From Botryllus schlosseri (Eukaryota): DNA of 64,000 nucleotides. Below the pieces are notes generated by a model. The model made no database searches. It saw nothing but the letters and a program-made list of their open reading frames with translations, and was not told where the DNA came from. Position 1 is the first letter of the stretch. Each line of letters opens with the position of its first letter. Shown in pieces: positions 3,401-38,967 of this stretch. The stretch is taken from the NCBI GenBank assembly GCA_051294905.1, contig CM119371.1, positions 7,130,001 to 7,194,000 on the forward strand, in the 5' to 3' direction. The position numbers and the translations under genes were made by a program.

Positions 3401-3408
3401 ACTTTGAT

Positions 3409-4854: not shown

Positions 4855-5031
4855 ACTTTGATACTGACATAATCTGCTAAATGTAATCGTGAGTAATCGT
4901 GATCACTTTTCCAATGTAATGGTAATCGCAATCGACTACTTCCAGATTTTGCTGTAATCGTTATCGCAATCGCGTGATTAAGAACTAATCGTAATCGCAA
5001 TCGATTTCGTTCATTAAGTAATCACCCCATG

Positions 5032-11449: not shown

Positions 11450-11966
11450 CAGTGATGAGCGGATAGTGCTTTTCGAGACTCCGAATCCCTCCGACAACTT
11501 TAGTGTCTGAGGAAAACTCCCTCCGACTCCGAAGAGCTCAATCCCAGACTCCGAGATACTCCGGTGAATGTCGTCAAGTATCCGAAACAGTGGCAAGCAT
11601 GGTACATGGTACACATGTTACAACATGGTACATGTGATAATATGGTTGGCCTCATAGTATTGCTTACTCTCCAGTCCCCAATTGCAGTGCAGATGGCTGA
11701 TTTTTATGCATCTGGCAATCATTTTTGCATGTTACCCGTCATATTACAACTTTACAAGGTGTCAACTGTCTGTGTTTTGGTTTGTAATCATAATCAATAG
11801 TGTATTCTGGTCAGAGCTATCCAAAGATATCGGAGACAAAAGTTACAATACTCCGAAATTCTCCGAAAAAATATCCGTAGTAAACTCCGGCTCCGCTCCG
11901 ACTGTCACAAAATTGGCAAAACTCCGCTCCGAATCCACTCCGACTCCGCTCCGATGCTCATCACTA
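11450..11966. mobile_element. hAT-type MITE upstream of the Merlin ORF
   Basis: TIR CAGTGATGAGC / GCTCATCACTA; 8-bp TSD AAAGATAC (11442-11449 and 11967-11974); subterminal CTCCGA repeats. Confidence 0.85.
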
Positions 11967-12927: not shown

Positions 12928-13106
12928 AACCTCCCTGATGCCAGTCAACTTGCGTTTTACATCGATAATAGCACCTACCAAACATTGAGTTATTTGAAAA
13001 CAAAATACCAAAAATTTTTTATTATATTTTACAGAAATTGGAATATAATAATAGGAAGTCCTATTTTTAATTGAATGAATTTGCCAGCTGTACCTATCAG
13101 TGAAGA

Positions 13107-15512: not shown

Positions 15513-15615
15513 TATTTGGAAACAAAAGGTAAAATGAAATATTTCTATTAACTGATACCCCTACTATATTTAGATTTAAGCTTAAAGTGTATTGTTAACC
15601 GACAATCGTGAAATC

Positions 15616-19218: not shown

Positions 19219-20038
19219 TGATTAATGTTTTCAGACTATTATTCACTGAAATATGAAGCATGAAAACTTGACTAACTATGTAATACTAGTGGAAACGGAC
19301 TGACACGCCCAAGGCTATGAAGTCGTGATAAGTTGTAAACAGGCTTATTGCTGTACTGTGGAAAATATGATTCCTTATTCCTGCAATGCAGTAAAAACCT
19401 TGCTAGCCCGGGGCTGTAACAAAACAAGTACTAAGACTACATTGGAAGCTTGACGTAAAAATGTGAAAGATACACTTACTTTCATATGTGAAACGTGATC
19501 TCAAGACCGTCGCATAAATACAATGTCTTTTGTAAAACTGATGATATATCCCAAAATAGGCAGTAGTCCATCACCTCTGCAATAAAGTAGATATATTTTC
19601 GAAAATGGAATGGCAATGACTGTATATTAACAAGAGATATACGGGCAAATTTTAGTGACGAGTCGTTAAAGCAGTATTCATTTCTCAAATACGATCCCAA
19701 ACCCTTACCTTTCCAGATTACCATTTCTTTTTTCAGGCAAGCGCTACATCAGATTGCTGTGAAATGACACAGTAACATTTACATACATTGGATCAAATGT
19801 AAATAATTATAAAAATCATTTAATATCTCATTTCTTGTTTCATTATACTGTAATTCATTCCTTTCGTTATATTTTGGTGAAAATATGTTGACATGAAGAA
19901 AATCACGACAACATGATTATAATTAAATAAATATACCTAAAAAATTCACAAAACCCTCAAAAACCGAAAAATATTTTGTTATTTAGTCTATACAGGTGAA
20001 TTTAATTTTGAAGCTTTCAATTTTGCTGCTAAATTGCA

Positions 20039-20670
20039 ATGATATCATTTTTGGGTGTTCTTATTGTTATAAAACACAAAAAAAAACATATATTACAAAA
20101 GAATCTTAAAATTCAGATTCAACAAAAAAAGGTATTCGCAAAAACATGTAGATTTAGATTTGTAACGATAGAAGATTCCAAAATTCTGTACATAAGGAAT
20201 ATTATTTCTGGACAGCACAGGCTGACAATTATGAAACCTTGTGAATATACTGAGCATCCAGGGCCCTAGATTATCGAAGACACCTCCTGGGTAAGTATGA
20301 TGTAAGTATATTTTACTGTTTTCTATCAAAGTTTCGAGACCATATTTAGTAGAAATATGGACAATCTCCTATAAACTGCGAAACCAGGGCAGGCTAATCC
20401 ATACGAAGCCGAGTAGAAAAAGATACATGCCATTGCGTAAAGCAATAGATAATTGCCCCTCTAGAACTAACAATACTGGCCCTTTATTTTATAACTAATA
20501 AAAAATACGACACAATTGGACCAAACATGAGTAGTTTATGCGATCTTCCAATTACGAGATAGGTAGTAAATGTATATAAATTCACGCATCACCATACTGT
20601 AGACACAATCCAGTCGTTAATGGAATGGATGTTGGGACACATTGTACAATTCTGGGATCAATTGTAGGTA
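20039..20670 (+). pseudogene. Possible decayed accessory ORF
   Basis: Protein-like reading (KTCRFRFVTIEDSKILYIRN...; HHHTVDTIQSLMEWMLGHIVQFWDQL) broken by several stops and a probable frameshift near 20425; no family recognised. Confidence 0.3.
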
Positions 20671-22255
20671 TGTTTTAATAAATTATAGGATTGTGAGAAG
20701 AGAGAATAACTCGGCACAGAATCAATAATATTCTGAAGTCGGAGGGCAGCATATTTCCTTTAGTAACCCTGTGAAAAGGAAGTAGAGCATTATGTTATGT
20801 TTTTTTTTGTACAATAATCAGTTATCAGTTTAACTCAATTTAAGAACAAGACCAAATGCTAATGAAATCAGAGTTTTCTATGGCTAATTATAACATAATT
20901 ACAAGTACCTGGTTCAATCAAAGTCCTTCATTGTGTAGTGAGAACTTGGATGCATGATTATGTTGAATTGGTCCTTAAGATTTCTTGAAAGATTGATTTG
21001 GCTGTTAGTACAAGGAAAATGGAAGTTCAAAACATTATTTACAAAATTTAACGTCTATCCTAGAAACAGGTTAATTTGTCACTTACTAAAAGTTTAAGCC
21101 TGGTTATTATTGAAGAATACTGCCGCCCCAAAAAATACCCAATAAATAAGGGAGTTAAGAACTACATATTTAAAATGAAGGTAACTACTGAACCCTATAA
21201 CTCAATCGGTATGGCTGAACACCAATAGCCATTACATCATGGAACAGGCCAAATTTGCTCAATTTCCTTTCAAATGAAGCTGTAAAGCACCCAACACTAT
21301 TGAAATGTTTCACTAGGCATCACAGAAATAGTGGAAAGCTTGACAAGTGAGTTTTCACAAAAATGTCTAAAGTGACATATTTTTTCTTTCAAGTAGGCAT
21401 AGAAATTGTCATGGAAAATTACTGGTACGATATAAAAAAATGAAGCACCAACAGATTATGAAATTCTGCTTTCTGAATGACAGATCGTGAGTGCAAACCA
21501 ACATATTTTGGAAGATAAAATCTCTAAAATATATAAACTGAGTAGAATTGACCTATGAAGTAATGTGCACACTACGTAATACAAGTGAAAACTAACCTTG
21601 TGTCGGATGATGCCTGGGCGATGTCTCGCGGTATTGTGCGGTGTCTCCTGGTACCTTCCGGTGCCGTGATATAATCTAAAATGACGGAAGTAATGTGAAA
21701 CTTATTATCAGATAAACTTCTCACGACATTTTGCAAAACAGGGCGTAGTCATCCAAAGAATGTAAAAATCTATATATACAAGCATAGATTTTTTTCTGAA
21801 TATTTCGAAATAAATATATACACCCACTCAAGATAGAACATTCATTCGGTCACTAGCATATTCTTATATCTGGAGGTCAGATACTCATGAATTATATTGA
21901 AGATAGAACAAGATAGTTTTTGTAATGACATATTACTAGACGGAATAGTACATGGATATATATACTTACCGATTGTTGAATTTAGGTGAAGTGATTGATA
22001 TAGGCTATTATAACTGAAAGAAAGTAAGTAGAGAGAGTTAATTATAAAAAAAAGGATAATAGAACGACAAGATCCAGGCCTTGCAAGTGACAATCATGTA
22101 TCGTTATGTTATATTGATGTTGTATCATATGTTATTTTACATAGTGTGTTATTGATTGCACAAAGTGAAGCTTTTACATATAGTAAAATGTTTGCTATTG
22201 ATTCTAGATTGTTTAATGTGAGATTGATTCATTGTAAACTTTCATTACAAAGAAT

Positions 22256-23167
22256 ATGGCAACTCCTTCAGATCTACCAGCAACATCACAATCTTCTGTC
22301 ATTATACTTGAAGATTGGGAGCCTGTACTACGGGAAACTGATTCCGATGATGATTTCCCTCTAGACAATGATTACAGAGTCCAGATTGAAATGGAATGTA
22401 GATGCAATACATTTTGTAATCTTTTTTTCTGCCGCGGACCTCTACTGAAAGGAAAGGGAAGATCGCGATTTTATGGCCTGAGTTTGACAACCTTGCTAAC
22501 AGGCCTTGTCAACAACATGCACAGATACGGTGGTGAATTGGTAGATAGACTGGCGTTCAGATTGAATTCACGAATCAGAGAATGGACTCAACAACGAGCT
22601 GTTTGTAACAGAAGAAACAAGCTCAATATAATCAACTACCAGTTCATTGTCGGTGGAATCGAAATGGATATCGACCATTATATAACACGATTTGCAAGAA
22701 AACACCTACTAAGACACGACATAATCCCATCTCTCAAAGGTGGATACAGCAAGAGGGATTGGAATGAGATGAACATTGATGTGTGGGAAAGAACTAATTG
22801 CCCAGTTTTTCTCGAGAGAGAGGAAGATATATTTCATGCGTTCTCGATTTGCGACGAAATATGGAGAAGATTGCCAACAGCCTTCCCAATGTTCAAGGGA
22901 TTAGAGTCGTCCTTGTGTGAACCCGTGAAAGACGTGAACTGGAAGAAAGCAGCTGTCGAGCAAATAAGAAGGGATGCCATTATATTCATCTACTATCCCA
23001 ACCTTATCATTGAATCGCTAGCAGCAGGCGACTGTTTTTACAATGTAGAAGAACTCCGACCGGAGGCGGAGAATGTGTACAAAAACAGGTACCTAATGCA
23101 TGTAAAGATTGGGAAACTAAGAACATTATTGATCCGATATGATGAGAAGAATAAGAATAAGGAATAA
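22256..23167 (+). CDS. Orphan 303-aa protein within the virus-like cassette
   Basis: ATG-initiated 912-bp intronless ORF in AT-rich surroundings; acidic N-terminus (ETDSDDDF) and Cys cluster CRCNTFCNLFFC; no family recognised. Confidence 0.7.
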   Translation: MATPSDLPATSQSSVIILEDWEPVLRETDSDDDFPLDNDYRVQIEMECRCNTFCNLFFCRGPLLKGKGRSRFYGLSLTTLLTGLVNNMHRYGGELVDRLAFRLNSRIREWTQQRAVCNRRNKLNIINYQFIVGGIEMDIDHYITRFARKHLLRHDIIPSLKGGYSKRDWNEMNIDVWERTNCPVFLEREEDIFHAFSICDEIWRRLPTAFPMFKGLESSLCEPVKDVNWKKAAVEQIRRDAIIFIYYPNLIIESLAAGDCFYNVEELRPEAENVYKNRYLMHVKIGKLRTLLIRYDEKNKNKE

Positions 23168-24903
23168 GGAGCTGATGTTGCTGAATAATCTGAGAACTGG
23201 AGAGTTGCTATATGAAACTGTTTATTTCTGGAGTTATCCATTTACCTGTGATCTGCTGAGTACTGCAATTATTGGTGTGAGTACACTCTTTATCTATGAC
23301 AAAACATTACTTTCCCCTGTTAAGATATCTTAAGCTGTCTGGTCCTAGGTATCTGATTGCAAAATACGGAAATATTTGCCGTTGATATCAGATTAAACAA
23401 AGCATAAATAACACCTTAATCACACTATATTATGGCCTCAGCATTAACAGAATAAACTAAATGATTAGATACATTAATCAATTCCTAACTGTCCTTTCTA
23501 CCGACTAACTGAAATCCCTGACTATTTGTCGCTAGACAAAGTTTTCGCCAAAAATCAATGTCATGGTTTATGAGTAACCACTATTGTCGCCATTGAGTAT
23601 TTCGAACAAGTGACGTATTTTGAATTAAAACAAAATCTGACATGGCCTTAGGCATTGCAGTCAAGGGCGTGAAAAATTCTTTAAAATTTAACTTAAGATG
23701 TGCTTTTCGTATTGGTGATTGCTGAATTATTATGTATAAAGTATAAGATGTTGTAACAAAAATGGACGTTACGTGTTATAACTGACAACACCACATATAT
23801 ATATGTCAGGATCCTTCGATCTAAAGGAGCGAAGTTACAAATTCGCTTTAAAATGGGAAATGTTTGCTCTGATAGGCGGTACATACGAATATTGAAAAAA
23901 AGCTTAATACAACTATATATTGATAATAGGGATTAAAGTTGCACAATACCCTATGAAAAAATAAAAACCAGAATTAATAGTACTGAGTTAGCACATTTAA
24001 CATCTGCAAGCCATGTACAAGGGACTACTTCTCCCAAATGTAAAATGTGTAATGATTGACGCGATACCTTTCGAAATTTTTCATAATGATACATTCGTAC
24101 CGCACTGAATCATTCACTTAAATGGCGCCAGTCAGAGAAACCGTTGCTATGGTTTTTGATAAACAACTGATATGTGCATTTCGTATAGTTTGACTGTATA
24201 TTGCATTTTGAAGATAATCTACATCTGAAATTGACTGACAGATGATTCAAATCGATACTAGAGCGTTATGAGTGTAATTTGGTTTATAAATTGTGCATGA
24301 TAGACGTGAATGGAAAAATTTTAATTATACCTTGAAGAATTTTATAAGTGCGAATCATTTATGATTGAATTTATTGTTAATTAGATCTGTATATCTGTTA
24401 AATGACGCAAAATTCATTGGAGTATTTGGTTGTATTAAGACAGGAAATGTGTTTTCTAGTAATATCTGAGCTCTGGACCGCATATGGTCGTTGTTGACTG
24501 GGGCAATGCGTGAAGATTGAACACCTGGAAGGTTACAGAAGAAAGAAAAGAACCTGGAATAAAGGTTTCAAGACTGATATCTACTGAAATTCATAGACTG
24601 TTAGAACCAGTGATATCACTGTCCCCTGAACATTCTATTCCACACAATTGGTGGCCAGTACGGATTCTTCAACTTCCATTTGTGATATCTCACATGCACT
24701 GCACAGAACAACGTTGCAGACTGATTTTCACAAGGTGTATTTTAGCAACTATCTCGACATTCATACTCATATGGACGGTGGTACAAGTATGCTGGTCTTC
24801 AAAAGGTGAATACCCATCTTCGAACTCTACGAATATTTCAACAGATGAGGGTGTTTATTTCAAATTATAAAGACAACAAAAATAGTGGGTCAATATTTTC
24901 ACA

Positions 24904-26037
24904 ATGAAGAAAATTTTTTCGAAAAAGCCGAAATCTACATCAAAGGATGCTCAAGCCTTACAAGAGAATCTTGCTCTTATGAAGGACACAGTCAAACGTC
25001 ACCAAGATGTTGAAATGAAACGAAGCCAGTTGAAATTGGCCGTAAAACAACAAGCAGAATTATTCAACGACATGAAAAATTTAATTCCAAAAACCACAAA
25101 AGAACTAGACTCGGCAAATCGTGACGTCAAGACCGCTCAAGCCGACCTATCAATGATAAAGCGCGCAACTGAAAAAGCATCTATGAAGATTGATTCTCAG
25201 ACGTTAAATGAAGTTCTTTCGGCGGAATTTGATTTAGGAAAAGCACATCAGAGAACAATAACCGGCTCCGGTCCAGCAACGTTATCGGCCGCCGTAGAAG
25301 TTATATCACCGCCTGCACCAAACTTGATTTCGATTAAACAACCAACTAAGCCACCAGCATATGCAGTAACCAGACAGCAATTGCAAACTGGCGAGAAGGG
25401 AAATAACAGTGATGTCTTTGCCCAAAAAATAGCCCCGCTTATACCGCAGAAATTGGTACCAACAGGCTCCAAACAGAAAAATACTTACAAGAATATATAC
25501 CCCCGATTAGATGGAGGTAGCGATACACAGTGTTATGTGACAGGTATCGAAGGTGTGGATACAATCCCTAATAACCTCATAATCCGGGGGTCATTTTTAC
25601 CCCAGCAAGACCCAGAATTCGAGCCGAGAATCCTGGCTTCACAGCGGACTCAGTTAATCCCACCGCCACTTTTCTCGCCAAATGTGATTCATGAACAAGG
25701 CCGTTTAGTAGTACCTTCCCCTGAGAGACGCGGGGTACCGTGGTACCTGCCGGAAGAGGCTCAAAATGACGATTCGGGGAGGCTCGATGATTCAGATGCT
25801 GCGGCATCTAATATCTCTGACCCACTGCCATACAGAAACAAGCGAATTATGCCGATGTCAGAGATGATCTCTGTAATGAAATCGGCTGGGTCAACACCGT
25901 TATTGCCTTGGTTGGAGGATAACCTCCGTATCCTGGATCATAAAAACGGCAATAGCCTTATCGATCGAGTCCTGGCTAACGCGATGCAGGCAAAATTGAT
26001 CGAAGCAGGCCGTCGGGAGGATGCAGAAATATTCGAT
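24904..26037 (+). CDS. Gag/matrix-like protein, truncated at 26037 by repeat DNA (ORF reads through to 26181)
   Basis: Basic amphipathic N-terminus (MKKIFSKKPK), ~100-aa coiled coil, Pro-rich middle with PPAY and YPRL late-domain motifs, then a helical capsid-like start (PLPYRNKRIMPMSEMISVMK...PWLEDNL). The last ~47 aa come from the minisatellite. Confidence 0.6.
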
Positions 26038-27500
26038 AGGGTTGGTGCTCTCACTTTACAAATAGGAAAAAAAGTTTGCAAATGGGCAAGGATTTACTTT
26101 GCAAATGGGCAAGAAAGTTTGCAAATGGGAAAGTATTTACTTTGCAAATGGCCAAGAAGTTTGCAAATGGGCAAGGACTGATTTCACTTTGCAAATGGCC
26201 AAGAACGGTCAAAAATCACGGCTTTTCATTGTATCGCATTTTTTGTGGTGTATTGAACTGATAAAATTGCTAATAAACCAATGATGATGGGTGGGGCCAT
26301 CAGCACCCTCAGTTGAGCATTGGAGCCAGATGGGTCCTCTCCCGCAAATTCGGCGAAATCCAAATCCAAATTAAAAAATCTAGATCTTAATCCAAAATTG
26401 ACGTCAGTTAGTTCGTGCTACCATGTGACCCCCATCGCCAGATTCACCACCACTAATTCGGATAAATCCAGATTTAGTTGGTGCTGTCAAAACTCACGAC
26501 ATGGTGGGGTCGTCAGCCCCCCAGTTGAGCAAGACCCAGATGAGGCCTCCCTCAACACATTCGGAGAAATCCAAATTCGAAAATCCAGATCTTCATCCAA
26601 AACTGGCGTGAGTTAGATCGTGCTGCCATGTGACCCCCGCATCCCCCATCACCACCACCAATTTTGATAAATCCAAATCCAGAATTAGTTGGTGCGGTCA
26701 GTCCCCCAGTCGAGCAAGACCCAGATGAGTCCGCCTCCCACATATTCGGCGAAATCCGATCGTGGTCAAAACTCACGACAATGTGGGGTCAGCGCCCCCC
26801 CCATACTTGGACACTACCCAAAAGAACCCTCATCCCCCAGAAATACGGCGACAAGGACACTCATCCCCCAGAAATACGGCGACCCATCGTCTATTTGACC
26901 AAATCCCGAACCCGAAAATCCATACTTTCATCAGAGTACACCCCTCCCGCACTTCTTTTCTCTTAAGTTGCAAATGGGCAGGAAATTTTTCAAATTCGAA
27001 GGATTTACTTTGCAAATGGGCAAGCATTTACTTTTCAAATGGGTAAGCGTTTACTCTTCAAATAGGCAAGGATTTATTTTCCAAATGGGCAAGAAAATTT
27101 GCAAATGGGCAAGGATTTACTTTGCAAATGCGGGCAAGAAAGTTTTCGAATGGGCAAGGATTTACTTTGCAAATGGGCAAGGATTTACTTTGCAAATGGG
27201 CACGGATTCACTTTGCAAATGGGCAAGAAAGTTTTCAAATGGGTAAGGATTTACTTTGCAAATGGGCAAGAAAGTTTACAAATGGGCAAGGATTTACTTT
27301 GCAAATGGGCAAGAAAGTTTGCAAATGGGCAAGGATTTACTTTGCAAATGGGCAAGGATTTACTTTGCAAATGGGCAAGGTCGGTGTCCGATTCCATAGA
27401 CAACTCCTAGTCGCTTCGACATCTTCCTTTCTTTTCATTGTATCGCATTTTTTGTAGTGTAGTGGATTGAACTGATAAAATTGCTAATAAACCAATGATG
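26038..27500 (+). repeat. Composite repeat copy A: TTTGCAAATGGGCAAG minisatellite, LINE-type 3' tail, GC-rich subrepeats
   Basis: Starts AGGGTTGGTGCTC; alternating 20/23-bp units; tail ...ATTGAACTGATAAAATTGCTAATAAACCAATGATG at ~26250-26290 and ~27465-27500; reverse complement at 37742-38967. Confidence 0.85.
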
Positions 27501-27503
27501 AAG

Positions 27504-28010
27504 TCTGTTCTGCAAATTGTGAATTCAAATACCGGTGAAAAATTTTCAGACCCTGCGATCGTCGCGAATCACTTCAATGAATATTTTTGTAACGTAGGCT
27601 AGGTCCTAATATTGTCTCTTCTCTTGCGAAACCTGCGTCAGCCAGGCCGGAGGTAAGATCGACATCTCAGTCTGTTATGCTCGATCCTGCCAATCACGCC
27701 GAAGTAGAAGTAGCCATCCACAAACTGAAATCCAACAAGGCCGTCGGCAATGATCAAGTCCTATTTTTTAAACTTCATGATAGAAAGCGGTGTCTATCCC
27801 AGCTCTGAAAACAGTCAGAGTGGTACCAATACACAAAGCTGGGGTTGGAACTAATGTCACTAACTATACAGAGTACAGACCGATATCTGTTCTTCCGTGT
27901 ATTGGGATTGTCTTCGAAAAGCTGCTCCTGTCTCGCCTATCTTTCTTCAATACCTCGCCAAAATGTCTATAATTTCCCCGCATCAATTTCGATTCCGCAT
28001 TAAACACCAA
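27504..28010 (+). pseudogene. Degenerate LINE (CR1/L2-group) ORF2 fragment upstream of the RT core
   Basis: Translates as DPAIVANHFNEYFCNVG*, EVEVAIHKLKSNKAVGND, VVPIHKAG, YRPISVLP, FEKLLLSRL, with stops and frameshifts. Confidence 0.85.
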
Positions 28011-28014
28011 ACCT

Positions 28015-28215
28015 CACATCATCATCATCATCATCTAATGGTTTATTAGCAATTTTATCAGTTCAATACACCACACAATATGCGATACAATGAAAAGACA
28101 GGAAGAAGTCCAAGCGACTTGGAGTAGGCTAGTCTATGGAATCAGACACCCGCCTTAGCCTAGGAGATGTAAAGAGGAGGCATGCACAGTTGCACAGAAT
28201 GCACACTGAATGAAA
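28015..28215 (-). repeat. LINE/SINE-type 3' tail ending in (GAT)n
   Basis: Reverse complement of the tail inside repeat A, ending in a longer (GAT)n run. Confidence 0.7.
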
Positions 28216-28337
28216 GTAAAGATCTAGGGATGGTGTGAACTTCTGAAAGGTTCAGGTTCGTGTGAACGCGAACCGAAAGGTTCTGTGTGAACGCGAACGT
28301 GAACCTCACGACGTCACGTGACGTCATATTGCTAATT

Positions 28338-28823
28338 CCAGCCCTATATTTGAATGAATGTGACAGCCTTTATAGTCTTGTAGAATTTTCGGTCAACCTA
28401 GAAAAAATTCTTATAAAGACGTATTATATACGGTTGGAAAGATAATTTTATCAGCTTTTCAATGTTGGGTTTTGTCACTTTTTTACCTTGGGGAAGAAAA
28501 GTTATGACCAAAAACGTGCCAGGGGGTAAAGCACTATTTTGCCTAACATTAAAATACAATTACAAGCTAAAACGCGATATCCAGCCCTATATTTGAATGA
28601 ATGTGACAGCCTTTATAGTCTTGTAGAATTTTCGGTCAACCTAGAAAAAATTCTTATAAAGACGTATTATATACGGTTGGAAAGATAATTTTATCAGCTT
28701 TTCAATGTTGGGTTTTGTCACTTTTTTACCTTGGGGAAGAAAAGTTATGACCAAAAACGTGCCAGGGGGTAAAGCACTATTTTGCCTAACATTAAAATAC
28801 AATTACAAGCTAAAACGCGATAT
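28338..28823. repeat. Perfect 2 x 243-bp tandem duplication
   Basis: CCAGCCCTATATTTG...AAAACGCGATAT at 28338-28580 and 28581-28823, with no differences seen. Confidence 0.9.
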
Positions 28824-30257
28824 CTTCGTAACATAATACAACACCATAAATTGGAATATCACTCTCAGTAAAGCAAACTAACAATCGAACAGCAAAAAAA
28901 AATGAAAAATAACTTTATTAAGAGGTATTTATGATACGTTAAGGGGTCAAAAGTTGACCGAGACGGAGATAACACTGGTAAAATTTCGAAAAAAATGATC
29001 GTCAAAATGAGCGTCAACCCCATGGACCCCCCTCGAAGTTTTTGTTCAAATATAGCTCAATTATCGTACAATCGTCATCTGTCTTGTGCAAATGATAACT
29101 GTAGGCTAGTGGTAAACAGCAACAAAATGACTTTTCTTTAAAATAACAGCATTCTATTTATGTAGAAATTGGGTTGACTTTTATTATTTCAAAGCTAATT
29201 ATTCAACTGCATTTTTTGAAATACGTGGTCGTGTCTTTATAATCTGCGCCTTCGATTTCATATCAATAAGTGCTGAAAATCCATTTAGACAAGGAAAGGT
29301 GGTGGCGAATGTAATAACAAGGCATAACGCTTTCGACGACACATTTGGGTATGATCGCAAAAATGATGACACCAAAATTGACTAACAAATTTTTTTATTG
29401 AACATATAACATCAAGCCGGTTCAAGCAGCTCATCTTGAAGTTATTAGAGAAATGGTTATGTAGGCCTATATCACAGGAGAAAACGGATTTTTGCGAACA
29501 TTTCGAAGTCTCCGTGATTGACTTTACGTATCCAACCATTTATTTTTTACACAATGCCCAGCAAAACACCTCTATACGCAGCCAAATATTTGTATCAGTG
29601 GGCTATTGACAATTTCGCAACTAAAATGAGTCCACACAGCATGAGGATATTCAATCTCAGACGGCCATTCTGTTTATGTGAGATCTACTGTAATGAAGTA
29701 AAACTGCCTCGTGATTTCCGTAATTTGAAAAATATAAATTAGGCTATCAATTATTTTGTAAATTCGCCTCGCTTCGCGGACCCCCAGTTGAGAACTACTG
29801 AACTAGAGTTTGTAGAAGTGCTACTCAAGTAGCACAAGTAACTCCCTATGTTTTCTACTAAATTAACAGTATAATTAGCAATTTTTGTGAAACGTGAAAA
29901 CTACTTCAAGTAGCAGAAAATCTAAGTATATGTGGTCGGGGAAAGGGTGGTCGCATATACTTTCGACATTTCGTCGGAGGTGGCTACATACGAAATCGCA
30001 ACATGTATCTTCTCGGGTAACGCAAAATGTTTATAATGACACAATACTCATTGGTAGAATATTTGAAAATATATTCAGTTACCGCGCTTTAAGGGTTGTT
30101 AAGGCTACTACATTTATTAATCATATGCAGCCAACCTCGTCGCGGAGCGGAACAGGAATACATTCGTGTTAAAATTAATAACTGGGTGCAGTACCAAATT
30201 CAATGTGGGCAGATATCTCCATGACATTCCCAGTTGATTTACTAGTCACACAAAGCA

Positions 30258-30728
30258 CGGGGGGGGCGTATTCATGGGGGAGGATCCTTCTGGGTAGCGC
30301 CCAAGTATGCGGGGGGGCTGACCCCACATTGTCGTGAGTTTTGACCACGATTGGATTTCGCCGAATTTGGGGGAGGAAGACTCATCTGGGTCTTGCTCGA
30401 CTGGGGGGGGGGGGGGGGTGGGGGCTGACCGCACCAACTACTTCTGGATTTGGATTTATCCAAATTGGTGGTGGTGGTGATGGGGGAGAGGGCGAACTAA
30501 CCCTGTCGTGATTTTTGAACGTTCTTGGCCATTTGCAATGTGAAATCAATCCTTGCCCATTTGAAAACTTCTTGGCCATTTGCAAAGTAAATCCTTACCC
30601 ATTTGCAAACTTTCTTGCCCATTTGCAAAGTAAATCCTTGCCCATTTGTAAACTTTCTTGCCCATTTGCAAAGTAAATCCTTGCCCATTTGTAAACTTTC
30701 TTGCCCATTTGCAAAGTAAATCCTTACC
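30258..30728 (-). repeat. Distal part of composite repeat copy B (left of the BEL insertion)
   Basis: Reverse-complement minisatellite and GC-rich subrepeats; continuous with 37742 onward once the BEL element and one TTACC are removed. Confidence 0.8.
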
Positions 30729-31139
30729 TGTTACTGTAGGCATTTCATGTTAATCTTGGGGGGTTCAATAATTTAGGAGCCATACTTGTATTCGCTAGAT
30801 GGCGTATGCTTGACGATACTTCCTGGTCTGGTCTAAGGGAATATTCTGGATATAGCTGTGATAGGGTACAGTTTGTCAATAGTAATTGGCCCACCGGACG
30901 TTCCCCCACTGTATTTACCGATCTTGTTGGGACAATATCTTATTCGTGCTACTACTGTGTCGTATTATAATTTGGATATAAGGAAATTCGATCAATTGGA
31001 ACTTCAAGCAATATACTTTTCTACCGTACTTCAAGATCGCGTATATTTACATCGGGAAACTTATAGGACTTTGCGGCGCTGTAAGTTCAAGGGAAGACAG
31101 CTTACACAGAATCACATAGGCAGTTCAGCGACCGCAACA
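30729..31139 (+). repeat. 5' LTR of BEL/Pao element
   Basis: No differences from 37331-37741 by eye. Confidence 0.95.
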
Positions 31140-31365
31140 GTAAATACAGCTAAAGGTCCGGTCGTGGAGTATTGGAATATACAGTGCAACGCCTGGAAGC
31201 GGAACTAAACAAAGGACAGGACGGCTATCGGTACCTAAGGAAAGGACAATTCCATATTGTGTGGATTGGTGCCGGTAATAGGACTTGCTTCATTTATACT
31301 AATATTGGAGAAAAGGACACACTTCTGTTGAAGAAAACACTAAGTTGGTGTACTCTGGTTTCATA

Positions 31366-34300
31366 ATGACTCCTGGAAGAAATAAGAAGAAGTCTGGAAA
31401 GGCTTCAGGTGGTGGCCGAAATGGTGCTAATTCAAGGAATTCTACTTTGGTGGGTGAAGATAACGTAGATTCGGATCCTAATAGAATCATGGCCGAGGAT
31501 TACAAGCATGGCCACACCGTGATATCGGACAGGAGAACTAGAGGAACCTCCGCTTATATTGAAAACATGAAGCAAGAGTTTGACTTCCATGTCAAAGAGG
31601 TATTGCGACAGTGCAAATGTCTGAATGACCTACTAGAGTCACGGGACGGTCGGGAATATGTTTCAAAAGCATATTTAGATATGCGAAAGAAGTTTGCTCT
31701 ACTACAAGATTTTTGGATTGATCTTGAGCCTCGTCTTAGGCCAGAGGAATCGGAAGCAATTTCTTGTTCATTCAAGGATATACAAGATCGGGTAGAAGAG
31801 ACTGGCTACAACGCAAAGGATTATTTGGATGAGTACAATGGCGAAACGAAGGCTAAGTTCTCTGAGCCCACTGCGAGACGAAATAGGCTTGTTGTACTAG
31901 AAGATTCAAACTCTCCTGATAGAGAGACTGCTCTGCTGCTTGAACAGAACCAACGAGACTACGAGCAGAAGATGAAGGACCTGTCGGCTCAGAATCAACG
32001 AGACATACAAAGGCTAATGGATAGAGGGCGGAAGTCGAAACCGAGTAGTGTACTGGATAACACCGAAAATGTAATGGATAGAGCTCCTAATAACGATGGT
32101 GCTCATGGGATATATCATGTTAATGCAAATCTGGATCAGGTTTTGAAGGAATTGGCTGTTTCGAATGCTATGTTGGCACGATCCTGTGGTCTACCAGAAA
32201 TTAAGGTTGGTGTTTTTGATGGCAATATTCTTGAATATTTAGCCTGGGAAACTTCGTTTGATGCATTGATTCAATCGAAGACATGCAATGTGCATGAGCT
32301 CTTGAACTATCTAGAGTCGCATCTATCTGGTGAGCCTAAGGAAATGATAAAGGGTTTACTGCTCTTGCAGAATAGAGATGCCTATGAAAGAGCACGTAAG
32401 AGATTGAAAACTAGATACGGCAACGACAATGTAATTGGAAATGCATTTTTGAATCGACTATCCTCTTGGCCAAAAATCAATGTCAAAGATGGGATTGGTC
32501 TAAGAAAATTTGCAGACTTTTTGGATCAAATAGCGGCAGCTGAGCAGAAAATACCTGCGCTTGGTGTTTTGAACTATGCCATTGAGAGTAATAAAATCAT
32601 TGGAAAACTACCGCAATTTCTGAGAGGTAAATGGCGGGATGAAGTTTACAAATGGCAAAGTAAATATGGTGAGGCGTCATATCCACCATTGAAAGAAGTG
32701 GCAGGATTTGTCGATGTCTGTGCCGAAAAGATGAATATTCCAGAATTGGATGATCTGGATTCGCCAAATGACAAAGGGAAAATTGACTCTCCTGAAGTAG
32801 TGAGCTATAAAGACTCTTACAAAGGAAAATTTAAGGTCACATCGTTCTCGACAGAATGTCAGGACGACACGAGTGCTACAAGGACAAAGTGTTATTTTTG
32901 TGACGAACTACATCACATTGATGATTGTGAAGGCTTTGGAAAGCTATCCCATATGGAGAAACGGGAATTTATAATGAAACGAGGACTATGTTTTGGTTGT
33001 GGCTCGTCGCAAGACCACATGGCCAAGTTCTGCACAGCAAGAATAACTTGCAGGATATGTAAAAGGAGGCATATGACATCGCTGCATATAGAAACTGATG
33101 AGGTGGACTCGAAATGTACGCAAGTGTGCTCCAAGGAAGGACAGAAGGGAGGTAAGCAAAATACTATGATCGTTCCGGTTTATGTGAGTACTGCTGCCAA
33201 TCCATCGAAGAAGGTCAAATGTTATTGTGCGCTAGATGGTCAATGTAATCGGACTTTCATGGTTGATGATCTGAAGGAAAGTTTAGGACTGGAATCTGTC
33301 AATACTAAGTTGCAGATGTCCACATTGTACAAATCTGGTGCAGTCATTAACTCAAGCAGGATCACTGGAATTATAGTTTCAAGTATCGATGAAACTTCTT
33401 CTGTCACTATTCCTCAAGTGTACACAAGAGCAGAAATTCCAGTTGAAATTTCACAAATCCCCAAACCTCAGGTTGCAAGAGAGTGGGCTCATCTTCGGAG
33501 CATTGCGGATAAAATTATGCCCTACGACCCATCTATGAAGGTTGGAATATTAATTGGTGCTGATGTTCCAAACGCGTTACGTCCTCGTGAGATTGTAGCC
33601 GGTGGTGATTCGGACCCATATGGTCAACTATCTATGTTTGGTTGGGGAATTGTTGGTAATGTTTGTAAAGACTTGACGGGTGAATCACCTAGCGTGGTAT
33701 CGCATCATACTATTGTGAGAGATGCACAAATGGAAGAAGGCTTTGAAACTTCAGAAGTTGTTGCTGACGGGAATACCGCCTTTGTATACATGTCAAAGGC
33801 GAAGGAAGTTATGTGTCCACAGAATATCAATCATTTGCTAGAAATGGATTTCATCGAACATAGGAATTTGGAAGCTTCTTTGTCGGTTGAGGAAAAGCGT
33901 TTTATGGACATCCTCTCAAAAGGTGTTGCAAGGAGAGAGGATGGGCATTACGAATTCCCTCTGCCATTGAAATACGACAATGTTAGAGTGCCAAACAACA
34001 GAGCTTTGGCTGCGAAAAGAGCGGAGCAGGTCAAAAGAAGATTGAGTAAAAACCAGAATCTTCATGAGGAGTATAAGGATCAAATGAATCTGACTATTGA
34101 AAAGTATGCGGAAAAGGTTCCAGAAGACATACTTGATTTAAAGAATGGTCGTATCAACTACATACCTCATTCTCCTGTTTTTCATAACAAGAAAGGAAGT
34201 CTTCGTATTGTAAATGATATGAGTGCCAAGTACGGTGGTCTGTGCATTAATGACGTACTATTGAGTGGACCAAATTTGATGGACAATATGACGGGAATCT

Positions 34301-37272
34301 TGTTGAGATTCAGAAAGAACGAAGTAGCCATCATGGCGGACATTGAAAAAATGTTTTTTCAATTTTATGTCAATGAAAAGGATCGTGATATGCTGAGATT
34401 TCTGTGGTGGAAAGATGGAGATATTTCAAGGGAACTTTTAGAGTATCGTATGAAGGTATTTCCCTTTGGAAGTGTCTCATCGCCAGGCGCGGCCATGTAT
34501 GGCATGAAGTTGGCCGCTGATGATGGAGAGCAAGAGTTCGGCTCCAAGGCTGCAGAATTTGTTCGATCCAATTTCTACGTGGATGATGGATTAACCTCGG
34601 TAGAAAATGTGGATGAAGCTGTTGAATTGGTGAAAAACAGCGTGGGTATATGTGGAAAGGCTGGATTGAGACTGCATAAATTTGTGTCGAACAAAATGCA
34701 AGTATTGGAATCGATTGATAAATCGGAAAGGGCGAAGGGATTGCAGGACATTGACTTCGATACTATGTCATCGTTGACAGAGAGGTCTTTGGGAATTTTA
34801 TGGAATCCATCATTGGATGTGTTTCGGTTCCACAGGGAATTGGTGGATAAACCAGTAACAAGACGAACAGTATTGAGTGTCGTATCGTCTATCTTTGATC
34901 CGATGGGTTTTCTAGCCCCTGTTCTGCTGGTTGGAAAGGTATTATTGCAAGAATTGTGCAAAATGAAACTTGATTGGGACACTGCGCTACCAGAAAGTTA
35001 TGCTCGTAGATGGGAAGATTGGTTAAATGATTTGAACAATTTGGATAAAATTCAAATCAAAAGATGTGTGAAACCTGATGAATTCGGCACCGTTGAGGAA
35101 GTGGAGCTTCACCATTTTTATGACGCATGTGAGTATGGATACGGGCAATGCTCATATCTCCGCTTGGTTGATGATAAAGGGAAAGTGCATTGCACTCTCA
35201 TTATGTCAAAATCGAGAGTTGCACCCTTGAAGCAAGTGTCAATTCCTAGGATGGAACTGACTGCGGCTGTGGTATCAGCCAAGATGAGCAAATTTCTCAA
35301 CACAGAGTTGCGGTATGAAAATTTGAAGGAGTATTTTTGGACTGACAGCAATGTTGTTTTGGGATATATAAATAACGTAGCGAGGCGATTTCATGTTTTC
35401 GTGGCAAACAGAGTTCAACTGATACATGATTTGACAGACTCTTCTGCATGGATGCATGTGGCAGGACATGATAATCCAAGTGACATTGCAAGCAGAGGTA
35501 CGTCGCTGGAAAAACTTTTATCACTTTCGTTATGGTGGGATGGACCGCAATTCTTGTGGAAAGAGGGAAGATTTGAAATACCAAAGGACGCTCATCCATC
35601 AGGCGAAGCTGTGGATGACTTGGTAGATGTGGAAGTCAGAAAGGCTGTGTCACTCAGTACAACTTCCAATGAAAATTCGGGATCTAAATCTTGGAATACA
35701 AACTTGAAACAGTTTTCGTCGTGGTTCAAGGCAAAACGGGCTGTTGCAAACTGCCTGCAATTCAAAGACAGATTGAAGGGTTTGCCCATAAACAGTTCTC
35801 TCACTATTGAAAGGTTATCAGTGGCAGAAAGGATCATCTTGAAAGACTTACAGAGTGAATTCTTTCCTGATGACATGGAACGTCTTGATCCTGCATCAAA
35901 GTCGAAGAGTTCTTCTGTAAAGAAAGGCAGTCCTTTGTACAAACTAGATCCATTTGTGGACAGAGATGGCTTGATAAGAGTTGGCGGAAGAATCCGTAAT
36001 AGCTCTTTGTCTTCTGAAGTCAAGAATCCAATTTTGCTGCCTCGGAAATCTCACGTAACGGACTTGATTATTCGCCATTTTCATGGAAAGGTCAATCATA
36101 TGGGACGTGGAATCACGCACAATGAGATACGTCAACATGGATATTGGATTATAGGTGGTGTGAGTGCTGTCTCTCAGCACATCCACCAATGCATAACTTG
36201 TCGGAAATTACGGAAACCATTATCGGCACAAAAGATGTGCGAATTACCAGAGTCGAGAATGGCTGAGCAAGGTCCATTCACATTTTGCTCGTGCGATTTC
36301 TTCGGGCCATTTGAAATCAAAGAAAGGCGATCCGTATTGAAAAGGTACGGAGTTATTTTCTCTTGTTTGTCATCCAGAGCTATACACTTGGAGACAACAA
36401 ACTCTATGGACTTGGATTCATTTATTAATGCACTGAGAAGATTTCTTGCAAGGAGAGGACCGATAAAATCACTGTTGAGTGATTGCGGAAGCAACATCAT
36501 TGGGGGAAAGAATGCTTTCCAAAAGGCGATGGGTGAGATGAATCAGAAAAAGGTCAGAGATTATCTATTGTCTGAAAATTGTGATCTGATAGAATTCAAC
36601 TTTCACGTGCCAAAAGCTAGTCATATGAATGGGAATGTCGAACGCCAAATTCTTACGGTGCGTCGTGTTTTGGAACCATTGCTTTGTCAAATAGGTTCAC
36701 ATTTGGATGATGAATCACTCAGAACCTTTTTCGCAGAAGTGGAAAATGTGGTAAATTCAAGACCACTAACTGTTATCAATTTGGGTGATGTCAATGCGCC
36801 AGAACCATTGACACCAAATCATCTGTTAACGATGAAACCAAAAATTTTGTTGTCACCTCCAGGGGAATTTGGCAAGCCAGATCTCTATGCAAGAAGGCGC
36901 TGGAGAAGAACACAATACGCTGTGAATCAATTTTGGTTCAGATGGAGAAGGGAGTTTTTACCTGGCATGCAACAACGCACTAAATGGAGCAAAGTTAGTC
37001 GAAATGTTCGAGTGGGAGATATTGTTATCGTTCATGATGATGACCTTCCGCGAAACTCTTGGAAATTGGGAATCGTACACTCGGTTTCGAATTCGACAGA
37101 TGGGCTGGTGCGAAAGGCCAAGATACGCATCGCCGACCGTACTATTGATCAGTACGGAAGAAGAATCAACGATGTGCAGTTTTTGGAGCGACCTATCCAC
37201 AAATTGGTCGTGCTTCTCGCTGCAGAGGAAGTTACCGAGGATTCCACCGGCGAGGAGCCACTAATGGACTAA
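31366..37272 (+). CDS. BEL/Pao Gag-Pol polyprotein
   Basis: Gag, three Cys/His knuckles (CYFCDELHHIDDC; CFGCGSSQDHMAKFC; CRICKRRH), protease (ALDGQ), RT (MADIEKMFFQ, FYVDDGL), Pao RNase H (HHFYDAC, KSRVAP), integrase (H..H...CITC, DFFGP, SDCGSN, VER), C-terminal FW.RWRREFL / VGDIV. The ORF track starts at a TTG (31345); the first ATG is at 31366. Confidence 0.95.
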   Translation: MTPGRNKKKSGKASGGGRNGANSRNSTLVGEDNVDSDPNRIMAEDYKHGHTVISDRRTRGTSAYIENMKQEFDFHVKEVLRQCKCLNDLLESRDGREYVSKAYLDMRKKFALLQDFWIDLEPRLRPEESEAISCSFKDIQDRVEETGYNAKDYLDEYNGETKAKFSEPTARRNRLVVLEDSNSPDRETALLLEQNQRDYEQKMKDLSAQNQRDIQRLMDRGRKSKPSSVLDNTENVMDRAPNNDGAHGIYHVNANLDQVLKELAVSNAMLARSCGLPEIKVGVFDGNILEYLAWETSFDALIQSKTCNVHELLNYLESHLSGEPKEMIKGLLLLQNRDAYERARKRLKTRYGNDNVIGNAFLNRLSSWPKINVKDGIGLRKFADFLDQIAAAEQKIPALGVLNYAIESNKIIGKLPQFLRGKWRDEVYKWQSKYGEASYPPLKEVAGFVDVCAEKMNIPELDDLDSPNDKGKIDSPEVVSYKDSYKGKFKVTSFSTECQDDTSATRTKCYFCDELHHIDDCEGFGKLSHMEKREFIMKRGLCFGCGSSQDHMAKFCTARITCRICKRRHMTSLHIETDEVDSKCTQVCSKEGQKGGKQNTMIVPVYVSTAANPSKKVKCYCALDGQCNRTFMVDDLKESLGLESVNTKLQMSTLYKSGAVINSSRITGIIVSSIDETSSVTIPQVYTRAEIPVEISQIPKPQVAREWAHLRSIADKIMPYDPSMKVGILIGADVPNALRPREIVAGGDSDPYGQLSMFGWGIVGNVCKDLTGESPSVVSHHTIVRDAQMEEGFETSEVVADGNTAFVYMSKAKEVMCPQNINHLLEMDFIEHRNLEASLSVEEKRFMDILSKGVARREDGHYEFPLPLKYDNVRVPNNRALAAKRAEQVKRRLSKNQNLHEEYKDQMNLTIEKYAEKVPEDILDLKNGRINYIPHSPVFHNKKGSLRIVNDMSAKYGGLCINDVLLSGPNLMDNMTGILLRFRKNEVAIMADIEKMFFQFYVNEKDRDMLRFLWWKDGDISRELLEYRMKVFPFGSVSSPGAAMYGMKLAADDGEQEFGSKAAEFVRSNFYVDDGLTSVENVDEAVELVKNSVGICGKAGLRLHKFVSNKMQVLESIDKSERAKGLQDIDFDTMSSLTERSLGILWNPSLDVFRFHRELVDKPVTRRTVLSVVSSIFDPMGFLAPVLLVGKVLLQELCKMKLDWDTALPESYARRWEDWLNDLNNLDKIQIKRCVKPDEFGTVEEVELHHFYDACEYGYGQCSYLRLVDDKGKVHCTLIMSKSRVAPLKQVSIPRMELTAAVVSAKMSKFLNTELRYENLKEYFWTDSNVVLGYINNVARRFHVFVANRVQLIHDLTDSSAWMHVAGHDNPSDIASRGTSLEKLLSLSLWWDGPQFLWKEGRFEIPKDAHPSGEAVDDLVDVEVRKAVSLSTTSNENSGSKSWNTNLKQFSSWFKAKRAVANCLQFKDRLKGLPINSSLTIERLSVAERIILKDLQSEFFPDDMERLDPASKSKSSSVKKGSPLYKLDPFVDRDGLIRVGGRIRNSSLSSEVKNPILLPRKSHVTDLIIRHFHGKVNHMGRGITHNEIRQHGYWIIGGVSAVSQHIHQCITCRKLRKPLSAQKMCELPESRMAEQGPFTFCSCDFFGPFEIKERRSVLKRYGVIFSCLSSRAIHLETTNSMDLDSFINALRRFLARRGPIKSLLSDCGSNIIGGKNAFQKAMGEMNQKKVRDYLLSENCDLIEFNFHVPKASHMNGNVERQILTVRRVLEPLLCQIGSHLDDESLRTFFAEVENVVNSRPLTVINLGDVNAPEPLTPNHLLTMKPKILLSPPGEFGKPDLYARRRWRRTQYAVNQFWFRWRREFLPGMQQRTKWSKVSRNVRVGDIVIVHDDDLPRNSWKLGIVHSVSNSTDGLVRKAKIRIADRTIDQYGRRINDVQFLERPIHKLVVLLAAEEVTEDSTGEEPLMD

Positions 37273-37330
37273 TGTTTTACTTGATTTGCAAAAAAGTTCT
37301 TTGTCATTTTATAACTTTTTTGGGGGGGTA

Positions 37331-37741
37331 TGTTACTGTAGGCATTTCATGTTAATCTTGGGGGGTTCAATAATTTAGGAGCCATACTTGTATTCGCTAG
37401 ATGGCGTATGCTTGACGATACTTCCTGGTCTGGTCTAAGGGAATATTCTGGATATAGCTGTGATAGGGTACAGTTTGTCAATAGTAATTGGCCCACCGGA
37501 CGTTCCCCCACTGTATTTACCGATCTTGTTGGGACAATATCTTATTCGTGCTACTACTGTGTCGTATTATAATTTGGATATAAGGAAATTCGATCAATTG
37601 GAACTTCAAGCAATATACTTTTCTACCGTACTTCAAGATCGCGTATATTTACATCGGGAAACTTATAGGACTTTGCGGCGCTGTAAGTTCAAGGGAAGAC
37701 AGCTTACACAGAATCACATAGGCAGTTCAGCGACCGCAACA
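37331..37741 (+). repeat. 3' LTR of BEL/Pao element
   Basis: Matches the 5' LTR; followed by TSD TTACC. Confidence 0.95.
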
Positions 37742-38967
37742 TTACCCATTTGCAAACTTTCTTGCCCATTTGCAAACTTTCTTGCCCATTTGCAAAGTAA
37801 ATCCTTGCCCATTTGTAAACTTTCTTGCCCATTTGCAAAGTAAATCCTTGCCCATTTGAAAACTTTCTTGCCCATTTGCAAAGTAAATCCTTGCCCATTT
37901 GCAAATTTTCTTGCCCATTTGGAAAGTAAATCCTTGCCTATTTGAAGAGTAAACGCTTACCCATTTGAAAAGTAAATGCTTGCCCATTTGCAAAGTAAAT
38001 CCTTCGCATTTGAAAAGTTTTCTGCCCATTTGCAACTAAAGAGAAAATAAGTGCGGAAGGGGTGTACTCTGATGAAAGTATGGATTTTCGGGTTCGGGAT
38101 TTGGTCAAATAGACGATGGGTCGCCGTATTTCTGGGGGATGAGTGTCCTTGTCGCCGTATTTCTGGGGATGAGGGTCCTTTTGGGTAGTGTCCAAGTATG
38201 GGGGGGGGGGGGCGCTGACCCCACATTGTCGTGAGTTTTGACCACGATCGGATTTCGCCGAATATGTGGGAGGCGGACTCATCTGGGTCTTGCTCGACTG
38301 GGGGGCTGACCGCACCAACTAATTCTGGATTTGGATTTATCAAAATTGGTGGTGGTGATGGGGGATGCGGGGGTCACATGGCAGCACGATCTAACTGACG
38401 CCAGTTTTGGATGAAGATCTGGATTTTCGAATTTGAATTTCTCCGAATGTGTGGAGGGAGGCCTCATCTGGGTCTTGCTCAACTGGGGGGCTGACGACCC
38501 CACCATGTCGTGAGTTTTGACAGCACCAACTAAATCTGGATTTATCCGAATTAGTGGTGGTGAATCTGGCGATGGGGGTCACATGGTAGCACGAACTAAC
38601 TGACGTCAGTTTTGGATGAAGATCTAGATTTTTTAATTTGGATTTGGATTTCGCCGAATTTGCGGGAGAGGACCCATCTGGCTCTTGCTCAACTGAGGGT
38701 GCTGATGACCCCACCAATCATCATTGGTTTATTAGCAATTTTATCAGTTCAATACACCACAAAAAATGCGATACAATGAAAAGTCGTGATTTTTGACCGT
38801 TCTTGGCCATTTGCAAAGTGAAATCAATCCTTGGCCATTTGCAAACTTCTTGGCCATTTGCAAAGTAAATACTTTCCCATTTGCAAACTTTCTTGCCCAT
38901 TTGTAAAGTAAATCCTTGCCCATTTGCAAACTTTTTTTCCCATTTGTAAAGCGAGAGCACCAACCCT
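37742..38967 (-). repeat. Composite repeat copy B (inverted relative to copy A)
   Basis: Reverse complement of ~26038-27300, beginning at the same AGGGTTGGTGCTC nucleotide. Confidence 0.88.

Follow-up and report, generated by a model that had tools for sequence, protein, structure and literature searches.

A gag-type gene behind a candidate LTR and downstream of env-like genes in Botryllus schlosseri, a plausible junction of retroelement units

How does a gag-like gene come to lie downstream of env-like genes in a tunicate genome? In the window, that is the whole 64,000-nucleotide stretch of Botryllus schlosseri DNA analysed here, the features of the locus follow one another along the plus strand as an env-like open reading frame (ORF), a second glycoprotein gene, an orphan ORF, a candidate LTR, a primer-binding site (PBS) and gag (Table 1). 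An earlier note on this DNA had pointed to a gag-like ORF located downstream of env-like ORFs, an order that our analysis confirmed, with both on the same strand. It had taken the product for a structural protein involved in the budding of an enveloped particle, and had proposed a non-retroviral genome plan, a circularly permuted integrant or the junction of two tandem copies as possible origins of the arrangement.

The gag ORF is stop-free over its 378 codons. Shuffling the interval 13000-26037 200 times produced a maximum stop-free frame of 212 codons, against these 378. The gene breaks off at 26038, where the left arm of a long inverted repeat begins (26038-27269 and 37742-38967, 96% identical); the frame stays open into this arm for a further 47 codons, until a stop at 26181. 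The coiled coil, the two motifs and the terminal helical segment cut by repeat DNA, as described in the earlier note, were all recovered. No match to the remaining 3' part of gag was found in the window by tblastn and profile searches, and no target-site duplication was found at the outer junctions of the inverted-repeat element, so that the 3' part of the gene was either lost or moved. The present copy is dead, as most of the capsid is missing and a DNA transposon interrupts the gene.

Table 1. Coordinates of the features discussed, numbered from the first letter of the window
Feature	Position	Strand	Basis and remarks
Merlin/ISXO2-type transposase ORF, left bound of the block	11986..12927	+	PF12762, E 2e-14; 180 nt before the env-like ATG
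Env-like ORF, 801 aa	13107..15512	+	Membrane-glycoprotein anatomy
Second membrane glycoprotein (glycoprotein 2), 1200 aa	15616..19218	+	Surface domain paralogous to that of the env-like ORF
Non-coding stretch of 3 kb, unique in the window	19219..22255	+	Low GC, A-skewed as the flanking ORFs
Orphan ORF, 303 aa, placed as a 3' accessory gene would be	22256..23167	+	No Pfam or PDB match
Candidate polypurine tract, 22/25 purines, then TG	23147..23171	+	Overlaps the end of the orphan ORF; weak
Candidate LTR, ~1.47 kb	23173..24646	+	Good support for the 3' end; 5' limit tentative
PBS, pairing with the last 15 nt of tRNA-Ile(AAT), 2 nt after a CA	24649..24663	+	15/15; starts 255 nt upstream of the gag ATG
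gag, 5' part, 378 aa	24904..26037	+	ORF, homologues; ~40-45% of the 848-976 aa homologue length
N-terminus, basic and lacking Gly2; candidate patch for membrane binding	24904..24939	+	Composition; homologues
Long helix/coiled coil (residues 13-93) and helix 98-116, matrix position	24940..25251	+	Predicted fold
PPAY, PPxY-type late motif (residues 150-153)	25351..25362	+	Aligned PPxY in P0003 and P0004; LPxY in P0007
IYPRL, (hydrophobic)YPxL-type late motif (YPRL: residues 199-202, 25498-25509)	25495..25509	+	Aligned in P0003 and P0004; elsewhere in P0007
First three helices of the capsid N-terminal lobe	25849..26037	+	37-51% identity to five homologues; mapping on the P0008 model
Inverted-repeat DNA element truncating gag, with an intact BEL/Pao element nested inside	26038..38967	.	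Arms; no outer target-site duplication

Sequence comparison of the window protein with Pfam and with PDB sequences gave no significant match, the best result of a PDB profile search being a nucleocapsid knuckle (E 0.07). A word-indexed homologue search returned 0 matches among 4,400 candidates, the same type of search with an alignment (A3) returned P0003 as sole match among 8,000 scored, and an Atlas query with the entire protein returned nothing usable. Scans of prokaryotic genomes for gag and env produced 56 and 69 pattern matches, respectively, none of which was confirmed. When 1.84 billion representatives, at 50% clustering, were searched exhaustively with phmmer, 7 homologues emerged at E<=0.001, the best of which (P0003) is Styela clava LOC144432391, with 30% identity over 405 columns (E 9e-37). 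Four of the 7 are long proteins (705-976 aa), all with a conserved helical domain of ~180 aa, an arginine-rich linker and a CX2CX4HX4C zinc knuckle in a second conserved domain; the knuckle is missing from the window copy, which ends before it. On these four proteins, the Pfam zf-CCHC family scored 12.6-17.6 bits in three, below its 20.8 cut-off, and left P0007 unscored, and no continuation into a pol family was detected with Pfam. The knuckle is itself embedded in a conserved domain of ~150 aa (P0003 ~665-815, also in P0004, P0007 and P0008), part of which is confidently modelled in P0008 (~560-650, pLDDT 76-85) and without structural match among the rows listed.

The earlier note had suggested comparing the fold of residues ~300-378 with retroviral capsids and recovering the uninterrupted gene elsewhere. 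Carried out on homologues, both comparisons supported a structural protein. In the AlphaFold model of P0008, produced from the 7-sequence alignment, residues 178-355 form a confident two-lobed domain (pLDDT mostly 77-92), and residues 314-378 of the window Gag correspond to residues 177-241 of this homologue. Compared with 48,161 chains using VIA, the P0008 capsid model retrieved, by a count of row titles, Gag capsids or capsid-derived proteins in 12 of the 14 top rows (Z 5.0-6.4) and in 26 of the 50 best rows. These matches span foamy virus, RSV, MLV, copia, Ty1, PEG10, Arc, HERV-K and HIV. The top row was the PFV capsid (rmsd 3.6, 84 aligned), with a Z of 6.4 that falls in the range treated by VIA as possibly generic for helical bundles. 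Foldseek returned no match for the same model at E<=0.001 in PDB or BFVD. The closest Atlas neighbours of P0003 335-515 were Retrotrans_gag/Ty3_capsid clusters (0.89-0.92), and the case for a capsid thus relies on the enrichment of capsids in the VIA rows and on its agreement with the Atlas. These structural matches come from the model of the homologue P0008, the window protein holding the first three capsid helices only; by position, its truncated terminal helices are the start of the capsid N-terminal lobe. A crude pattern for the major homology region (MHR) was absent from the window Gag, which ends before the relevant half.

Taken together, the capsid-like model, the Atlas neighbourhood, the CCHC knuckle and the PBS described below support the identification of a Gag, and we consider that the window protein is almost certainly a true, structural Gag, as judged from its sequence relatives and their predicted fold. 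The four long homologues continue past the point of the break into the two-lobed domain and the knuckle, indicating a structural rather than a non-structural protein. From sequences and models, the layout of the family is a basic tip with a coiled coil, a proline-rich linker with 2-3 late motifs, a two-lobed capsid, an arginine-rich linker and a single CCHC knuckle inside a conserved domain predicted to be folded. This family is apparently undescribed in the open-access literature searched. Four short Gag/env peptide motifs were absent from 7 text supplements of PMC13524379, files that need not contain Gag.

A single-sequence model of the window Gag reached a mean pLDDT of 50 and was poor outside the coiled coil, which appeared as one continuous helix over residues 13-93 (pLDDT about 79-95). 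A fold search with this model returned generic coiled coils only. The coiled coil is conserved in P0003, P0004 and P0009, and partly in P0005 and P0007. Ahead of it, K/R account for 6 of the first 20 residues and residue 2 is a Lys, not a Gly, and the N-termini of P0003, P0004 and P0009 are likewise basic, contain an aromatic residue and lack Gly2. The N-terminus had been described as basic and amphipathic, without a myristoylable Gly2; its basicity and the absence of Gly2 stood, and its amphipathic character found weak support, with a hydrophobic moment of 0.45 over residues 1-11, a pLDDT below 50 for residues 1-7 and no helix before residue 13. Downstream, residues 112-316 are proline-rich and modelled with low confidence, the linker that carries the late motifs being predicted as disordered (pLDDT <50), and three helices then span residues 318-376.

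The two motifs of this linker belong to known classes, PPxY recruiting NEDD4-like ligases, (L)YPxnL recruiting ALIX and P(T/S)AP recruiting TSG101 (as summarized in PMC3705266). PPxY and YPxL co-occurred by chance in 0.16% of whole-protein shuffles and in 0.55% of shuffles restricted to residues 120-310 (20,000 each). Among the 6 homologues with pre-capsid sequence, both motif types are present in three: P0003 and P0004, where PPxY and hydrophobic-YPxL occupy aligned positions with a PTAP in addition, and P0007, where LPxY and LYPxL occur in a different order. Linker motifs are absent from P0005 (58-aa linker), P0008 and P0009; P0008 lacks the coiled coil and has a PPxY near its C-terminus. 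Shuffling the linkers gave P values for the motif counts of 0.006 (window), 1e-4 (P0003), 0/20,000 (P0004) and 0.018 (P0007), obtained with linker bounds and a widened [PL]PxY pattern that were set post hoc, after the data had been viewed. The proposal of two late domains in a budding protein can be kept in part: the motifs are real and recur in relatives above chance, in three pre-capsid linkers of six, and budding itself would follow by analogy. On this analogy, we regard the use of the motifs for budding as likely. It is unlikely that, in a genuine Gag, PPAY and YPRL arose by chance in a linker rich in proline, or that they work in assembly instead of budding. Such a reading could invoke their absence from half of the six homologues and the precedent of foamy Gag, whose YEIL and PPPI resemble late domains and were shown not to be so (PMC3705266). 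It accounts poorly for motifs kept aligned in P0003 and P0004 although the linkers otherwise align poorly, and for the hydrophobic residue before YPxL and the additional PTAP in these two proteins.

The strongest clue to the order of the genes is the PBS, which had gone unnoticed in the earlier note. It is exactly complementary to the 3' end of the human tRNA-Ile(AAT) sequence given in PMC13439101, and PMC1084362 shows a related PBS for tRNA-Ile. A match of this quality is expected by chance at ~1e-5 in the 1.7-kb gap, allowing for 60 tRNA ends, and its 15-mer has no other match in the window within 2 mismatches. Pairing ends at 15 nt, against the usual 18, with a human tRNA as reference. No tRNA gene and no Rfam family was found. 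The CA dinucleotide and the PBS place the end of an LTR at 24646, between the glycoprotein genes and gag, and the glycoprotein block consequently lies upstream of this LTR and not between a 5' LTR and gag. On sequence grounds, an LTR-PBS pair very probably directly precedes gag.

The extent of the LTR is less firmly drawn. TATA-like boxes at 24285 and 24343 and an AATAAA at 24558 have a spacing that fits a U3-R-U5 organization, and the purine tract at its presumed upstream edge ties as the most purine-rich 25-mer of 19219-24646, where 21 looser candidates exist; in such AT-rich DNA, the TATA, AATAAA and purine signals are individually weak. An alternative LTR of 92 bp, beginning at 24555, stays in consideration. 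No second copy of the LTR was found in the window.

Upstream of the LTR, the env-like ORF displays the anatomy on which its label rests: a signal-like segment (residues 3-21), a Cys-containing surface part, an RxKR site (447-450) followed by a hydrophobic segment (451-469), a transmembrane segment (TM, 743-761) and 13 N-glycosylation sequons, with no Cys from the cleavage site to the TM and hence a stalk presumed to be long, Cys-free and helical. It has no significant Pfam or PDB sequence match and a single homologue, P0002, 49% identical. Glycoprotein 2 shares 28% identity with the env-like surface domain over 320 aa (E 9e-27), 7 Cys being invariant among the two proteins and P0002. It carries a furin-type site at 479, a Ser/Thr-rich stalk (about 500-1100), a C-terminal TM and 36 sequons. 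A duplicated surface domain combined with a ~600-aa mucin-like stalk and a TM makes it an unusual companion for a retroelement env. Neither of these two paralogous glycoproteins could be placed in any of the families tested. The orphan ORF contains a Cys cluster at residues 48-59.

The search for a pol accompanying gag was negative in the gaps, both by motif scan and by tblastn with the BEL protein. The non-coding stretch after glycoprotein 2 contained no pol motif and no curated Pfam match, and Pfam applied to 33 selected short frames (of about 100) gave one sub-threshold DUF match. The only pol within the window belongs to a nested BEL/Pao element. A strict pattern for splice acceptors gave no clear match ahead of the upstream ORFs.

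The block is set among DNA transposons. The inverted-repeat element on its right, which we take from its anatomy to be Foldback-like, has 1.2-kb arms made of 23/43-bp repeats, with partial internal copies, and may have caused the rearrangement. It hosts an exact 243-bp tandem duplication (28337-28822), which could be recent or an assembly artefact, and the BEL/Pao element (30729-37741, plus strand), which is a very recent insertion, intact with a 1,989-codon frame, identical LTRs of ~410 bp and a TTACC target duplication. On the minus strand, a 95-codon frame (39253-38969) enters the right arm; it looks protein-like and has no Pfam match. To the left lies a Mutator-type element (2819-11275) that has terminal inverted repeats, carries subterminal arrays of 146 bp and shows a target duplication of 9 bp; on the minus strand it encodes a MULE transposase, an Ulp1-type protease and a PHD finger, interrupted by a single stop at ~6487. 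Just upstream of the Merlin transposase ATG, a short non-autonomous element (11450-11966), presumably hAT-type from its anatomy, is flanked by an exact 8-bp target duplication. Elsewhere in the window, three paralogues, each a single ORF and about 85% identical at the DNA level (556-2196, minus strand; 42148-43785 and 62023-63651, plus strand), look on inspection like BTB-Kelch host genes, and positions 53917-54790 hold inverted arrays that are asymmetric between the strands, contain telomere-like words and have units of 53, 66, 90 and 105 bp.

Which history best accounts for this order? We lean towards a junction between units of an LTR element, in which gag is of retroviral type and the env block upstream derives from a neighbouring copy, and the oddity of env before gag then most likely dissolves into a junction of copies. 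The circularly permuted integrant and the tandem junction put forward in the earlier note both survive the finding of the PBS, and the locus as trimmed by Merlin and the inverted-repeat element is compatible with either. That the env block and gag come from the same family is, in our estimate, more likely than not. The four ORFs share one strand and an AT skew of 0.12-0.21, the three segments sampled in the gaps have a lower GC than all 14 background segments, and the two segments of the first gap a higher AT skew than all 14; common strand, A-rich skew and gap composition were counted in favour of a single origin. Counted against it were the 5.7 kb, 3 kb of them non-coding, that separate glycoprotein 2 from gag, and the length of ~19-20 kb that a single unit would reach, which would be unusually long. 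The same 5.7-kb gap feeds a competing explanation, missing from the earlier list, in which an LTR-PBS-gag element was inserted downstream of an unrelated glycoprotein block, either another endogenous virus or cargo of Merlin. The region is indeed a pile of nested transposons, no homologue locus joining env and gag was found, and the env-like ATG closely follows the transposase of a Merlin element whose terminal repeats were looked for and not resolved. Against unrelated neighbours speak, besides strand and skew, an orphan ORF ending in a purine tract that adjoins TG at a plausible LTR start, the absence of host-type repeats within the interval and the late motifs of Gag, which would predict an enveloped element. 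On balance we hold this explanation to be improbable, while giving it more weight than any other competitor on the origin of the locus.

An element natively ordered ENV-GAG-POL would also produce the order seen in the window. GAG-ENV-POL orders have been reported (PMC4402516, PMC13524379), and two mites, Medioppia subpectinata and Oppia nitens, are reported to have gypsy-type elements ordered ENV-GAG-POL (PMC13524379), so that even a native env-first order would have a precedent. In such an element the PBS is expected before env, yet it was found immediately ahead of gag, 11.5 kb past the env ATG, which makes a native order very improbable. The least credible alternative, to which we attach next to no weight, is a gene from a non-retroviral enveloped virus, for its matrix or nucleocapsid, or else a coiled-coil gene of the host. 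Two consecutive glycoprotein genes are reminiscent of non-retroviral genome plans, and the window protein itself matches nothing in Pfam or among PDB sequences; the capsid-like two-lobed domain, the CCHC knuckle and the tRNA PBS largely refute this alternative. The non-retroviral plan raised in the earlier note, like a natively reversed order, is therefore not supported, given an LTR-PBS-leader-gag arrangement within 255 nt of the ATG.

Under the junction of LTR-element units that we favour, the ORF would be the upstream portion of a gag gene from an Ortervirales LTR retroelement. The window would then show where one unit gives way to another: env, glycoprotein 2 and the accessory ORF would close the first, gag would open the second, and a single LTR would stand between them. 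Such a junction could come from tandem copies with an LTR in common or from the integration of a circle with one LTR, and DNA transposons would later have trimmed it on both sides, Merlin on the left and the inverted-repeat element on the right. The element's own order would be the usual LTR-PBS-gag-(pol)-env-accessory-LTR. Full-length Gag would bind the membrane through its basic tip, assemble around an RNA primed by tRNA-Ile and package it through the CCHC knuckle. Budding would proceed via ESCRT, with recruitment of NEDD4-type ligases by PPxY, ALIX by YPxL and, in some members, TSG101 by PTAP, the particle taking up the two glycoproteins encoded upstream, a putative fusogen and a putative attachment protein.

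Should the env block and gag be parts of one element, the locus would document an enveloped retroelement in tunicates, a lineage sister to the vertebrates, with an envelope that looks unlike the catalogued F-type and gB-type envelopes of invertebrates. We also considered, as a distinctly speculative proposal, that tunicates host an apparently new lineage of LTR elements that are retrovirus-like, complex and enveloped. It would combine an ESCRT-recruiting Gag, an unplaced cleaved fusogen, a mucin-stalked attachment glycoprotein, an accessory gene and an LTR of ~1.5 kb, and its reverse transcriptase (RT), in the boldest form, would branch beside Retroviridae and lokiretroviruses and not inside Ty3/gypsy. 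Should the RT branch there, the retroviral particle design would predate vertebrates. A Gag family without Pfam match and with 7 representatives at 50% clustering, yet with up to three canonical budding motifs in the orthoretroviral position, is unusual in itself. Styela clava LOC144432391 provides a named handle on its pol and true gene order, which bear on how retroviruses gained their budding and entry machinery.

Ty3/gypsy elements with an env, called 'errantiviruses' in a broad sense, are already documented in tunicates, including Oikopleura Tor and ascidian gB-type elements (cases listed in PMC13524379 and PMC4402516). The present element resembles them by its LTR, its 3'-end tRNA PBS, its separate gag ORF, its env-like glycoprotein and its tunicate host, as well as by the Retrotrans_gag/Ty3_capsid clusters closest to its capsid region. 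It differs from them by an env-like ORF that has a surface part of ~450 aa, lacks Cys from the cleavage site to the TM and matches no Pfam family, and by the extra, mucin-like glycoprotein. The Cys layout of the env-like ORF looks unlike those of F-type and gB-type Env. In the 15 tunicate rows shown in PMC13524379, Env is F-type (appendicularians) or gB-type (ascidians), none of the rows is from Styela and none is labelled tRNA-Ile, several reading 'others' or 'none'. Styela clava is entered as having 'no intact copies' in the errantivirus surveys (tabulated in PMC4402516 and PMC13524379), and the terms 'late domain' and 'ESCRT' are absent from the main text of PMC13524379.

With the Gag of orthoretroviruses (RSV, MLV, HIV-1), the family shares the order matrix, late motifs, capsid and CCHC knuckle, a PPxY and YPxL pair as in RSV p2b (described in PMC3705266) and capsid-lobe matches to the RSV and MLV CA-CTD (Z 5.7-6.1). 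It departs from them by a single long coiled coil in the matrix position, the lack of Gly2, a knuckle located inside a larger conserved domain and an invertebrate host. Foamy Gag, for its part, is described as non-myristoylated, with an N-terminal coiled coil, a late motif before a central two-lobed capsid and an arginine-rich C-terminal part, and as lysine-poor and devoid of Cys-His boxes (features given in PMC3705263). The unmyristoylated coiled-coil N-terminus, the pre-capsid late motif, the two-lobed capsid and the arginine-rich part are common to both, and the lead of the PFV capsid over other capsids, with a Z difference below 1, amounts to a tie. Unlike foamy Gag, the proteins of the window family carry a CCHC knuckle and are rich in lysine at the N-terminus, and membership in Spumaretrovirinae was rejected on the CCHC found in all four long homologues.

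Two further groups invite comparison. When genomes including 19 from tunicates were screened, lokiretroviruses, like canonical retroviruses, were recovered from vertebrates only, and Odin retrotransposons from sea anemones only, without env (as reported in PMC9040795). As LTR elements near the boundary between retroviruses and retrotransposons, both resemble the present element, lokiretroviruses also by a non-canonical Env (PMC9040795); these groups are defined on Pol, which was not found with the window element. Troyka/Kuafuorterviruses are marine LTR elements found in stolidobranch ascidians, usually with a single Gag-Pol, a CX2CX8-10HX4C knuckle, no env and LTRs of 100-400 bp (characters given in PMC12440569 and PMC11673190). 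Assignment to Troyka/Kuafuorterviridae was rejected on the CX2CX4HX4C knuckle, on long homologues ending without pol and on the env-like genes. Considered as a whole, the window protein belongs to the Ortervirales Gag class, and in its presumed mode of action it resembles the Gag of orthoretroviruses or of foamy viruses.
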